Shown here in pieces: positions 43,982-47,477 of a stretch of 64,000 nucleotides of DNA. The position numbers and the translations under genes were made by a program. The notes under the pieces were generated by a model. It worked only from the letters and a program-made list of their open reading frames with translations, did no database searches and was not told the DNA's origin. The stretch spans positions 480,001 to 544,000 of the forward strand of contig CAVVUN010000002.1 in NCBI GenBank assembly GCA_963751455.1, given 5' to 3'. Source of the DNA: Nitrospirota bacterium. Its GTDB lineage: Bacteria > Nitrospirota > UBA9217. Every line of letters starts with the position of its first letter. The stretch's first letter is position 1.

Positions 43982-44185
43982 TCACACAGCCGGGAACGAC
44001 CATTTGACAGGTCGCTCCACCGGTCCCGACGAGAGGGCGATAATGATTGTGTATCCGTGCAAGCTCGGATTATAACGCGTATGGAAGAAGAGGGTGTTCT
44101 GGATGAAAACGGGTTTCTTTCCGTTCCCACGGGATGTGATATCATAGAAGGACCCGGGGAATTCTATTCGAAGAGGTCCAGCCAT
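43982..44185 (-). pseudogene. Decayed REP-associated tyrosine transposase (Y1/RAYT) fragment
   Basis: MAGPLRIEFPGSFYDITSRGN resembles the MARPLRIEFPGAxYHVTSRGN N-terminus; out-of-frame NHY remnant of the HUH region. Confidence 0.7.
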
Positions 44186-44299
44186 GTAGCACTATAACAT
44201 GAGAAAGGGTGGTTTGCAATGAGAACGAATTGACGGTAGTGTCTCAGTTTGAAAATATTCCCCGTTGAGCTAAAGCCAAAATCATGCTATTATGGATTC

Positions 44300-44530
44300 A
44301 TGCCAAAAGGACCGCAAGGACAAAAGAGGCCCGCTGATGTGATCGGGAACGCTATTAAGATCGCCAAGATCGCTACGGGCGAGATTGAAGAAAAGACCGA
44401 TGGGAAAGAGTACGCCCGTAAAGGTGGCCTTATAGGTGGCAAAGCTAGAGCGGATAAATTGACACCCGCCCGACGAAAGGCAATAGCCAAGAAAGCCGCA
44501 AAAACCCGCTGGGAAAAGCCTCGACCGTAA
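44300..44530 (+). CDS. Small basic KGG-like protein of the IS element
   Basis: MPKGPQGQKRPADVIGNA...KGGLIGGKARA...AAKTRW; promoter TTGAGC-17-TATTAT ends 6 nt before the ATG. Confidence 0.8.
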   Translation: MPKGPQGQKRPADVIGNAIKIAKIATGEIEEKTDGKEYARKGGLIGGKARADKLTPARRKAIAKKAAKTRWEKPRP

Positions 44531-44695
44531 CCCCTTGACCCATTGATAAAATTGCATTAATACTTTAGTACTGCCAACTATTCCTCTCCTGTATTGCCTA
44601 TATCGGGGCAATAAATCTACAGGGTCAATGAAAAGTATTGACTCTCTCCTCAATATCTGCTATAAATAATCATCCTAAAGGAAGGGGGTTAGCCT

Positions 44696-45127
44696 ATGCC
44701 TCGGATGGATACAATAGATCGAACGAAGGCCAATTTTAATTTTTCAGAGATGAAGCAAAAACTTCAGTCTCAGCTTGCACAGTATCAACAGGCTGTCGAG
44801 GAAGTGAAGAGGGAATTGGATGCGCTGGCCATCATAGAAGGGTCCAAATATCTCGCAATCGAGTCAAGAACAGACCGGTCTCGATCACAGACAAGTTTAT
44901 TCAGCAAGTCTTCTCTAAAAGATAGAATGATTGCCACAGTCAATACCATGCCAGAAAAATTTACACGCATGGAGTTTTTCGAGTGCGTAAAAAAAACAGG
45001 AGAAGCTAACGACGGATCATTGAGCGTATATTTCCCTCAGCTGAAAGCTGAAGGGTATATTATGGTTCTTGAAGAACCACACGGGCATCAACCTGGCTAT
45101 TACACTAAGGGCAATAGGCACGAGTAG
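44696..45127 (+). CDS. Hypothetical protein, coiled coil plus possible winged helix (IS cargo)
   Basis: RBS AAGGGGG; promoter TTGACT-17-TATAAA; N-terminal heptads. Confidence 0.65.
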   Translation: MPRMDTIDRTKANFNFSEMKQKLQSQLAQYQQAVEEVKRELDALAIIEGSKYLAIESRTDRSRSQTSLFSKSSLKDRMIATVNTMPEKFTRMEFFECVKKTGEANDGSLSVYFPQLKAEGYIMVLEEPHGHQPGYYTKGNRHE

Positions 45128-45155
45128 CAAGTTTTTGAGTTGGGAGGTGATGTGA

Positions 45156-45212
45156 ATGAGAAGAAGATCTAGCGCCATAGTGGACGGCGTGGACATAAAT
45201 AGACAGAAATAG
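45156..45212 (+). CDS. Putative 18-aa leader peptide MRRRSSAIVDGVDINRQK
   Basis: RBS GGAGGTGA; ATG AGA AGA AGA; stop codon inside a 13-bp stem. Confidence 0.45.
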   Translation: MRRRSSAIVDGVDINRQK

Positions 45213-45274
45213 CGTGAGCTTTTAAGCCTGACCAGCCGAAACTCACGCTATTTCCCACTCCCTGATACATATAT

Positions 45275-45347
45275 GCCCCTGTAGTTCAACGGATAGAACA
45301 CGCGTCCACTAAACGCACTATCCCGGGTTCGAATCCCGGCAGGGGCT
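45275..45347 (+). tRNA. tRNA-like gene with anticodon ACT (atypical, no encoded CCA)
   Basis: Acceptor GCCCCTG/CAGGGGC, D arm GTTC-AACGGATA-GAAC, anticodon arm CGCGT-CCACTAA-ACGCA, T arm CCGGG-TTCGAAT-CCCGG. Confidence 0.8.
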
Positions 45348-45360
45348 CTTTTGTTGTTTA

Positions 45361-45388
45361 ATTATAAACCAATTGGCTTAAATGTCAA
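45361..45388 (-). promoter_or_regulatory. Consensus sigma70 promoter antisense to the tRNA-like gene
   Basis: Minus strand TTGACA-16 bp-TATAAT. Confidence 0.6.
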
Positions 45389-45411
45389 TTGTAAATTATA
45401 GGAGTACAACT

Positions 45412-45744
45412 ATGAGCGATACGGGTACAGCTACTTGGTTAACTTACACCTTCACGGTTTATCCCCATGCAGGTACATCATGGAACAGTGTTGCGGGAAT
45501 TTACATTTTGACAGGTGTAAATCGACAGAATCAGTGGGAACCTTTGTATATTGGGCAATGCGACAGTTTTCTAAGCAGAATTCCATCGCACGAGAGATGG
45601 GATGAGGCACAGGCTCTAGGGGCGCGCCATATACATGCGCTGGTGGTGTCGAAGCAGGAAGATCGTGACATAATTGAGAAGGCTTTGATTCGTGCATATC
45701 AGCCACCTCTAAACGATCTATTGAAAAAGTATCTTTCACTTTAA
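45412..45744 (+). CDS. Stand-alone GIY-YIG nuclease-like protein (IS cargo)
   Basis: AGIYIL...LYIGQ, SRIPSH, IEKALI...PPLN; RBS AGGAG. Confidence 0.8.
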   Translation: MSDTGTATWLTYTFTVYPHAGTSWNSVAGIYILTGVNRQNQWEPLYIGQCDSFLSRIPSHERWDEAQALGARHIHALVVSKQEDRDIIEKALIRAYQPPLNDLLKKYLSL

Positions 45745-45766
45745 TACCTCCACAATAGGTTCAACC

Positions 45767-45810
45767 TGGGGTTTTGCGCAATCCATCCGTGCAAGGCCCC
45801 TTTTCTTTTC
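45767..45810 (+). terminator. Intrinsic terminator after the GIY-YIG gene
   Basis: GGGGTTTTGCGC...GTGCAAGGCCCC followed by TTTTCTTTTC. Confidence 0.6.
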
Positions 45811-45819
45811 TTGAGTACT

Positions 45820-45848
45820 ATTATAGGTGAACGATCGTTCACTGTCAA
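45820..45848 (-). promoter_or_regulatory. Consensus sigma70 promoter with a 16-bp palindrome, antisense to the GIY-YIG gene
   Basis: Minus strand TTGACA-GTGAACGATCGTTCACC-TATAAT. Confidence 0.7.
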
Positions 45849-45876
45849 GGGTATTATTTTAAACTGAAAATAATGC

Positions 45877-45905
45877 TTGACACTCAAGCATAAAGTTCAT
45901 ATAAT
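45877..45905 (+). promoter_or_regulatory. Transposase promoter (likely leaderless mRNA) with an inverted repeat over the -35
   Basis: TTGACA-17-TATAAT-6 nt-ATG; TGCTTGA-CAC-TCAAGCA. Confidence 0.7.
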
Positions 45906-45911
45906 AAGAAC

Positions 45912-46742
45912 ATGAACAAACTACCTATCAATAAACGAGTCCAAATACTAAACATGCTTTGCGAAGGAAGCTCAATGCGATCTATCTCGCGGATCGCAGA
46001 CGTTTCGATCAACACCGTTACGAAGCTGCTTGTTGATGCAGGGACGGCATGTAACGAGTACCATAATCAGAACGTAAAGGAACTTACCGTTAAGCGCGTC
46101 CAGGCCGACGAGATTTGGAGTTTTTGTTACTCGAAAGAAAAGAACGTTCCCGAGGAAAAGCAGGGTATATTTGGTTACGGTGATGTATGGACGTTTACGG
46201 CCATTGATGCGGATTCAAAGCTGATCGTATCCTGGCACGTAGGCAGTAGGGATATGGAGAACGCGACCATGTTCATGAAGGACGTAGCATCAAGGCTTAA
46301 AAGCCGCGTCCAGTTAACCACAGACGGCCATAAAATGTATTTGGAAGCTGTAGAGAGTGCTTTCGGTTCTGATATTGACTTTGCGCAGCTTGTGAAGATA
46401 TATAGGAGTGTGCCGAGTAGTGCTGAAACGCGGTATAGTCCTGCCAAATATGTCGGGGCTGAAAAAACAAAGATCACCGGCAACCCTGACAGGAAGGAAG
46501 TATCTACTTCCCATGTTGAACGTCAAAACCTTAACATGCGTATGGGGATGCGCAGATTTACCCGGTTGACGAACGCATTCTCAAAGAAACTGGAAAATCA
46601 CTATCACGCGCTTTCGCTCTATTTCATGTTCTATAACTTCGTAAGGATTCACAAAACCTTGAGTGTTACACCTGCAATGGCAGCTAACTTAACCGATAGG
46701 CTTTGGACTATGGAAGATATAGTTGCTTTGATAGAGAAATAA
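45912..46742 (+). CDS. IS1-family DDE transposase
   Basis: N-terminal [34 protein letters not shown]. Confidence 0.92.
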
Positions 46743-46829
46743 AGCAGAGGCCGGATTTTTTTTATTTTCCCCTTGACAGTAAGTACTTACTTACATTATA
46801 CTATAGGTGGATATAGGAAAGGAGTGCTT

Positions 46830-46982
46830 ATGCCAGAACAAAACAAGGATGGGAAAATATTAACAACGTATGATTTTACTTTAATGACGTGGAAAGCCGT
46901 TCGTTATCTCCGGTTTTCGATAGCCTTGATTATATCGCTTCTAATTGCGATTGGGTCAATACTGGCATTCAAAGCTTTTTGA
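46830..46982 (+). CDS. 50-aa single-TM protein overlapping the antisense Zn-ribbon gene
   Basis: Promoter TTGACA-18-TATACT (46773-46802), RBS AAGGAG, hydrophobic C-terminus. Confidence 0.5.
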   Translation: MPEQNKDGKILTTYDFTLMTWKAVRYLRFSIALIISLLIAIGSILAFKAF

Positions 46983-47101
46983 CAGCTAGGGCAGGAGTAA
47001 ATAACCGTTTTCCATTCTTGCCCCATAAATGCGGACGAATTAACCGAGTCTAAATTTAATCTGAATAAAGGTTGATTACAATGTGGACAGTTAGCAGCCA
47101 T
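46904..47101 (-). CDS. 65-aa zinc-ribbon protein (IS cargo)
   Basis: CPHC...CPSC; RBS AAGGGGG. Confidence 0.65.
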   Translation of the reverse strand: MAANCPHCNQPLFRLNLDSVNSSAFMGQEWKTVIYSCPSCQKALNASIDPIAIRSDIIKAIENRR

Positions 47102-47477
47102 AGTTCCCCCTTTTATTCTATGAGATTGATAGGGCATCATATCATTTTTAGTAAAAATAAGGGGATTTTTTATAAAGGATTGAAACTGAGACACTACCGA
47201 ATTGACGGTTATGATGGAACCATGCCGGCCATGGACAGCTTCAAGCGGTATATCAACGCTATGGCATTCCACAGAGCGTCTATTTGGACAGGCACTCAAC
47301 GTATAAATCCACGGCCAAGCAGAGCATCGAGTATGAGTTGTTTATGTCTCTCCAATTACGCATTATGAAAAAAGCAATAAAAGCCGAAAAATAAACAGCA
47401 ACAATTGCCGAGAGAACCTGTAAATATTCTGCTACAATATGTCCGAGTGAAAAAAGCGGCATCTGCGATTACCTCTC

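Follow-up and report, generated by a model that had tools for sequence, protein, structure and literature searches.

An IS1-related transposon with exchangeable cargo carries a tRNA that joins arginine identity marks to a serine anticodon

Classical IS1 elements are about 0.8 kb long and express their transposase by a frameshift from InsA, whose N-terminus holds a zinc finger and a helix-turn-helix (HTH), into InsB. Some IS1-family members reportedly carry passenger genes, and the family includes an ISMhu11 subgroup; a tRNA passenger is said to occur in the IS1595 family. Passenger-carrying insertion sequences (tIS) are documented for several insertion sequence (IS) families in passages of PMC7986276 and PMC9330008, and passages of PMC5389517 and PMC10404621 describe natural off-code tRNAs that cause mistranslation in E. 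coli and are toxic to it; both passenger-carrying IS elements and mistranslating tRNAs (allo-tRNAs, tRNA-ProX) are known kinds. The stretch analysed here, 64,000 nucleotides from a Nitrospirota bacterium (contig CAVVUN010000002.1, positions 480,001 to 544,000; the window, to which plain coordinates refer), contains an intact IS1-related, cargo-carrying insertion sequence of 2964 bp (44235-47198), and among its cargo is a tRNA with an arginine-type body and an ACU anticodon. We consider it somewhat probable that this transposon, built on a fixed two-gene backbone, carries a tRNA that is charged with arginine and would insert it at AGU serine codons.

The tRNA gene (45275-45347, plus strand, no encoded CCA) had been described from the sequence as tRNA-like. 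It matches the tRNA model (Rfam RF00005, 56.6 bits, E 8.6e-11) and is labelled Ser(ACT) by ARAGORN, and the word “like” undersells it: an arginine-type body bears a serine anticodon, and the combination recurs in a conserved family. The RNA folds into a 7/5 cloverleaf of 73 nt whose variable loop has 5 nt; 20 of its 21 stem pairs are intact, and its ACU anticodon pairs with the serine codon AGU. Passages of PMC9976931 give A20, C35, U or G36 and a permitted base 73 as the bacterial arginine determinants and place serine identity in the long variable arm. The element tRNA has the full arginine set (A20, C35, U36, U73) and lacks the long variable arm; host serine tRNAs are 86-90 nt. Its best-scoring host counterparts are Arg(UCU) and Arg(CCU), and a strict A20 pattern picks out, from 53 host tRNAs, six arginine calls, one glutamine call and the element tRNA (two looser A20 patterns also caught valine and alanine tRNAs). 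The host encodes a single arginyl-tRNA synthetase (ArgRS) and normal Arg(UCU), Arg(CCU) and long-arm Ser(GCU) tRNAs; AGU, AGC and AGA are used at 5.6, 16.1 and 7.4 per 1000 codons. Two other interpretations were discarded: that of an amber suppressor, with CUA reached by a one-base shift, because the stem fails to pair in that register, and that of a host code change at AGY, against which the normal host Ser(GCU) speaks. Elsewhere in the host genome, at G000:C12:361367 and C13:3947, Arg(CCU) recurs as a partial copy and a selenocysteine tRNA is called for the second time.

Is this tRNA an oddity of one genome? A DNA pattern for its body matched 12 viral loci and at least 119 metagenomic loci (about 140 estimated), a narrow sample, since acceptor stem and D arm were prescribed by the pattern, and one whose members are kin and not independent; a search of the element tRNA against plasmids gave no match. 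Among the matches listed, to which the counts out of 101 refer throughout, 104 distinct sequences could be parsed, and at least 17 of the 21 stem pairs are preserved in 101 of them. Their anticodons are 56 GCU and 45 ACU, interchanging; T-stem positions, left free in the pattern, are paired in 99-101 of the 101, with several pair types; U33 is kept in 79; and the T loop is altered in 30, versus 1 of 71 canonical arginine tRNAs. The ACU/GCU sequences also keep together: for 90 of 102 among the matches listed, the nearest neighbor is another ACU/GCU sequence. Freeing position 20 returned the same 12 viral matches, so 12 of 12 keep A20, and A20 is likewise found in the ACU/GCU tRNAs reached from the transposase side. 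When the anticodon was freed on the same body, 100 of 104 distinct viral sequences (half the collection) had arginine anticodons. In separate anticodon scans, which left out 12 further anticodons ending in G, the two anticodons ACU and GCU gave 12 stretches and 44 other non-arginine anticodons together gave 7; the anticodon change that preserves arginine identity is thus the one retained. These tRNAs form a conserved family that keeps arginine identity marks with ACU or GCU anticodons. The class was not found in the literature searched, though supplements and subscription papers may list it, and it is absent from the passages of PMC7609411, PMC11415595, PMC5389517 and PMC10404621.

The family travels with mobile DNA. 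Among the matches listed, the transposase of this element or its small basic gene lies near 45 of 96 distinct metagenomic tRNAs, and an IS1595 transposase adjoins the tRNA at 7 loci; other neighbors are phage integrases, IS5-type transposases and PIN or HicB genes. Many metagenomic contigs are too short for a context call, and the context is mostly mobile where it can be read. Counted from the element side, 50 complete elements in GTDB genomes hold six short-arm ACU/GCU tRNAs, three long-arm serine-like tRNAs (UAU or UAG) and one possible pseudogene, two low-score reverse-strand “Stop” tRNA calls over the basic gene (L022, L041) having been excluded. Long-arm serine-like UAU/UAG tRNAs occupy the same slot at four loci (L027:5806-5902, L039:5017-5108, L049:5822-5915 and L038:5475-5565), and these elements possibly serve to carry the published allo-tRNA-UAU class. 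The long-arm tRNA of L038 is 8/4-like and stands in tandem with a GCU arginine-body tRNA; tandem clusters of two to three odd tRNAs, some with 8-nt anticodon loops, are present at L099, L229, L232, L250, L252, L261 and L341. In one other genome (1 of 8 GIY-YIG loci examined), a GIY-YIG gene is accompanied by a related transposase and a short-arm GCU tRNA; in this distant element (L382:3671-5080, G264:C1), the tRNA has a different body and A20.

The vehicle itself belongs to a very widespread family whose two backbone genes stay fixed as the cargo changes. GTDB genomes yielded 143 relatives in one scan, of which 80 were kept for analysis: 63 have paired ends, and 50 have matched ends with an exact 8-bp duplication, at sizes of 2.2-7.3 kb. 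The earlier note had listed a KGG-like basic gene as cargo, and neither half of that label holds: the gene (44300-44530, plus strand) is present in 50 of 50 complete relatives and is thus backbone, and its 76-aa product has no Pfam family at E up to 1, hence no KGG motif match; its clusters in the Atlas bear the name “RNA-binding protein”. The cargo, by contrast, varies, as the note had proposed to check: among 48 of the 50 complete elements (two duplicates dropped), 140 candidate cargo open reading frames (ORFs) fall into 120 clusters, and constant backbone plus exchanged cargo support its picture of a minimal transposon with cassette-like contents. A second copy in the host genome (G000:C8:245176-247588) shares the ends and the basic gene, has an 8-bp duplication of its own and a transposase of 89% identity, but lacks the tRNA and carries a 307-aa ClpP/SDH-like protease ORF, so labeled by resemblance to relatives named in the Pfam scan, and a small basic ORF. 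That scan, of 117 cargo ORFs, matched Panacea, PIN, PemK, Gp49 with an HTH partner, Fic, Abi_2, MqsA and SecB, along with DNA methylases, P63C and IrrE-like peptidases, and left more than half of the ORFs with no match. The cargo of the family thus appears often to be toxin-antitoxin or defence-like; the census and the tRNA family together support the defence- or translation-related flavor suspected earlier. In a quick tree of 63 transposases, the window transposase falls in a supported group of 20 rows where no other member carries an ACU/GCU tRNA; the tRNA module has therefore likely entered this backbone by exchange.

How would such a tRNA act? Host ArgRS would charge it with arginine and seryl-tRNA synthetase (SerRS) would not, because the long variable arm is lacking. 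The charged tRNA would decode AGU (the GCU versions, AGC and AGU) and compete with host Ser(GCU) at AGU codons. Free expression would probably be toxic; the tRNA would then have to be restrained by an upstream regulator gene, convergent promoters and weakening bases, and candidate restraints are the putative regulator, the promoter facing the tRNA at 45388, the hairpin at 45206-45254, C33 and the altered T loop. Most speculatively, the module might be an inducible device for stress, addiction or defence against phages, comparable to the toxin-antitoxin genes found at this slot in relatives. A broader proposal is tentative and may well prove wrong: that mistranslating tRNAs are RNA toxins spread by promoter-seeking IS1-related transposons, by IS1595 elements and by prophages, and that an autoregulated winged-helix gene and antisense promoters silence such a tRNA, arginine-charged and serine-reading, until stress or phage attack sets it free to corrupt the proteome. 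If true, the system would be of toxin-antitoxin or abortive-infection type, with a tRNA that alters the genetic code as its toxin.

The candidate regulator is a 143-aa protein (44696-45127, plus strand). A coiled-coil/winged-helix or DUF5343 gene is found in 8 of 10 tRNA-bearing versus 3 of 40 other complete elements, counts made with profiles built from other loci and among kin that are not independent, and the 143-aa protein is likely the regulator of the tRNA module. Of its earlier label, coiled-coil/wHTH-like, the winged-helix part is weakly supported: the Pfam match has an E of 0.026, the hhalign probability is 48%, and a single-sequence model reaches pLDDT 58; a homologue search returned only the protein itself. 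Downstream, a strong predicted hairpin (45206-45254) sits immediately 5′ of the tRNA, and the region 5′ of the tRNA folds at z < -2 in 21 of 29 transposase-adjacent relatives; the hairpin is possibly a terminator of an antisense transcript or a processing signal. On the far side, a promoter that matches 12 of 12 consensus positions (45361-45388, minus strand) points back into the tRNA, and similar antisense promoters occur in 9 of 30 transposase-adjacent relatives versus 0.9 expected. Antisense control as a general trait of the tRNA family was rejected: the promoter is a local feature, found mainly beside the transposase promoter region. In two relatives (L072:5787-6001 and L079:5668-6001), a structured-looking, non-tRNA sequence lies between the winged-helix gene and the transposase, the slot of the tRNA elsewhere.

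A second perfect-consensus promoter (45820-45848, minus strand) also points inward and holds a LexA-type box (45827-45842) in its spacer. The box recurs in the host, in the dinB-lexA promoter and in that of a second LexA-family gene; five promoters in the genome carry a LexA-type box in the spacer, and the C8 copy lacks the one described here. DNA damage would likely fire from it a transcript antisense to the nuclease gene. Behind this promoter, a 95-aa ORF with a ribosome-binding site (45452-45739, minus strand) is fully antisense to the GIY-YIG gene. Host promoters with the box in the -35/-10 spacer lie at G000:C1:612746, C3:358191, C2:413648 and C2:655188, and two of them precede related 190-aa ORFs.

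Several points weigh against an arginine-inserting tRNA held under control for defence. The pattern-based sample is narrow and composed of kin, as said. The element tRNA combines C33, present in 22 of 101 family members versus 0 of 71 canonical arginine tRNAs, with U73, present in 3 of 101, and a C27-A43 mismatch in the anticodon stem; decay fits these three states as well as tuning does. Charging and decoding are read from sequence, and the defence role from gene neighborhood. Passages of PMC5389517 report amber suppression by none of six allo-tRNA-UAU variants and no histidine insertion by two histidine-charged off-code tRNAs. Nor does the element shield its own transposase: the AGY share of serine codons is 41% in 23 tRNA-bearing transposases versus 34% in 37 tRNA-free ones, and AGY avoidance in element genes, none being seen, was rejected. 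As to control, the 143-aa protein is not matched by the profile of the family's winged-helix proteins, and the antisense promoter is found at 4 of 54 loci without the element and at 0 of 15 with the transposase elsewhere. PADLOC returned partial GIY-YIG motif matches and no full model match. Separately, a recoding switch, in which the transposase would need arginine at AGY, was rejected: tRNA-bearing elements have no AGY at highly conserved arginine columns, and position 251 of the transposase has AGY in tRNA-free copies too.

If decoding is in doubt, what else could the family do? It may be functional outside decoding, as a charged or simply bound decoy for ArgRS or for a toxin that cuts or modifies tRNAs, or as a transcript processing signal, a view we regard as rather improbable. 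Charged but non-translating off-code tRNAs are documented in passages of PMC5389517, C33 and altered T loops are enriched in the family, and structured non-tRNA sequences follow the winged-helix gene in L072 and L079; but a processing signal would need no restricted anticodon, and the family is limited to ACU and GCU at 45 to 56, other non-arginine anticodons being rare on this body and U33 being retained in most members.

The family could also be functional while this copy is a decaying, inactive passenger on an ordinary selfish IS with random cargo. The three rarer states meet in this one tRNA, the quick tree places the transposase among tRNA-free elements, and the nuclease gene now parts the tRNA from the transposase promoter region; since the module was captured from elsewhere, as the tree position suggests, it may have lost its context. 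Set against 20 intact stem pairs of 21, the Rfam score, the 22 relatives that share C33, the open frames of all adjoining genes and promoters that match consensus, this seems unlikely. Least plausible, and in our view very improbable, is an accessory tRNA that reads correctly, either as an arginine tRNA for AGA through inosine or four-way wobble or as a serine tRNA that SerRS charges. A34 could be converted to inosine, since a likely TadA-type deaminase is encoded in the host, and AGA is a codon of modest frequency; however, the majority anticodon GCU (56 of 101) cannot, by wobble rules, read AGA or AGG, the host already has its normal UCU and CCU arginine tRNAs and a long-arm GCU serine tRNA, and the element tRNA offers SerRS no long variable arm. 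Arginine insertion at AGU remains the reading we prefer, and it would matter beyond this locus. Deliberate mistranslation by dedicated tRNAs has few known cases; this family is large and mobile and would need no synthetase but that of the host. If the reading is true, mobile elements pass a switchable code change between phyla, the “tRNA-Ser” annotation of these genes is wrong, and the odd tRNAs beside transposons and toxin-antitoxin genes gain both a vehicle and a purpose.

The remaining cargo is likely a pair of separately captured passengers. A stand-alone GIY-YIG nuclease domain with an intact catalytic motif is encoded at 45412-45744 (plus strand): it has 13 homologues at 55-79% identity, the motif residues (GIY, YIG, catalytic Arg, His, Glu and Asn) are invariant in 14 of 14 aligned sequences, and the model (pLDDT 91) finds UvrC GIY-YIG domains as its top fold matches. 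A hairpin followed by a T run (45768-45800, plus strand), noted by eye and absent from the terminator-scan output, looks like a terminator for its transcript. In the right-hand cargo slot, a minus-strand gene (46904-47101) encodes a 65-aa Zn-ribbon protein with four homologues of 65-66 aa and weak zinc-ribbon Pfam matches; both genes had been so named from the sequence. An outward promoter and a 50-aa plus-strand ORF (46773-46982) run antisense to and overlap the Zn-ribbon gene; the search found 0 homologues of this ORF, and it is not taken for a conserved gene.

The element is whole, as first described. Its terminal inverted repeats (44235-44253, plus, and 47180-47198, minus) are 19 bp long with one mismatch, the repeat search having reported 20 nt at 95% because the flanking duplicate contributes one extra pair; related ends delimit 63 of the 80 loci. 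The 8-bp direct repeat GAATTGAC stands at both ends (44227-44234 and 47199-47206), and the 276-aa DDE transposase frame is uninterrupted. GC content is 43% versus about 51% in the genome contigs, and the cargo excluding basic gene and transposase amounts to 1837 bp at 41% GC, in keeping with the roughly 2 kb of AT-rich DNA initially noticed. The backbone genes appear to have leaderless transcripts: a promoter-like site with an extended -10 (44265-44293, plus strand; a consensus match at 9 of 12 positions) sits immediately 5′ of the basic gene, and the likely leaderless transposase promoter (45877-45905, plus strand) is overlapped by a palindrome (45874-45890), a layout that by eye is similar in most complete relatives.

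Where does this family insert? At 18 of 51 distinct sites (13 right, 6 left), a -35-like hexamer lies 15 bp from the element end, against a background of 1.4% per position elsewhere (binomial p ~1e-15) and 6 sites at the next-best position: the family favors sites 15 bp upstream of -35 boxes. The window element conforms, with the -35 box of a flanking minus-strand host promoter (44191-44219) starting 15 bp from its end. Such a fixed spacing points to a targeting mechanism, for which the constant basic protein is a candidate factor. The earlier note had suggested looking for an empty site in relatives; a left-flank search of 61 family genomes turned up no orthologous one, and just paralogous promoter regions aligned up to the duplication. 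The element sits immediately 5′ of the promoter of a short broken ORF (43982-44185, minus strand) with many paralogous starts in the genome; the ORF has no Pfam or PHROG match, and we take it to resemble the start of a REP-associated tyrosine transposase. In the right flanks of L019, L023, L029, L037, L041, L046, L059 and L061, alphaproteobacterial insertions lie by promoters with repeated GAAC motifs, which presumably resemble the SOS boxes of these bacteria.

How does the element compare with known systems? Its transposase (45912-46742, plus strand) passes the Pfam IS1-type DDE model (PF03400, 26.6 bits versus a cut-off of 24.1) and falls below the cut-off of the NCBIfam IS1 model (NF033558, 66.7 versus 100); plasmid homologues are annotated as “IS1 family transposase”, and the closest transposases in the GTDB genome scan stem from Nitrospirota assemblies. 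Catalytic D66, D138 and E203 are each conserved in at least 97% of 63 relatives. With the IS1 family and its tIS, the element shares the IS1-type DDE domain, inverted ends that begin with GG, an 8-bp target duplication (within the 8-9 bp of the family) and passengers between the ends. It departs from the classical layout in having one 276-aa frame with an N-terminal HTH and no zinc finger, in place of the InsA/InsB frameshift, and a length of 2964 bp; it differs further in that the small basic gene is constant, that cargo flanks the transposase on either side and that the distance to -35 boxes is set. The IS1595-family tIS (tISCpe8, MTnSag1) are likewise small IS with passengers and 8-bp duplications, but passages of PMC5704250 give their transposase as a zinc ribbon plus an ISXO2 domain and their passengers as resistance genes. 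The novelty that the earlier note saw in a cargo-bearing IS was overstated: passages of PMC7986276 describe tIS in several families, and a single scan found 143 relatives.

The tRNA has its own closest kin. Allo-tRNAs, as presented in passages of PMC5389517, are off-code tRNAs found close to transposon genes and to toxin-antitoxin systems; some of these tRNAs mistranslate and kill E. coli, and long-arm UAU tRNAs also occur within this element family; yet allo-tRNAs have 8/4 or 9/3 arms, a long variable arm and serine or alanine identity, whereas the element tRNA is 7/5 and short-armed with arginine identity, and those passages make no mention of A20 or ArgRS. Streptomyces tRNA-ProX, according to passages of PMC10404621 and PMC11415595, similarly joins the body of one amino acid's tRNA to the anticodon of another, with A34, a non-U33 loop and toxicity upon expression; it differs in its proline identity, chromosomal loci and dedicated synthetase. 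The element tRNA has arginine identity, comes with no synthetase on the element and travels on IS elements and prophages in several phyla.

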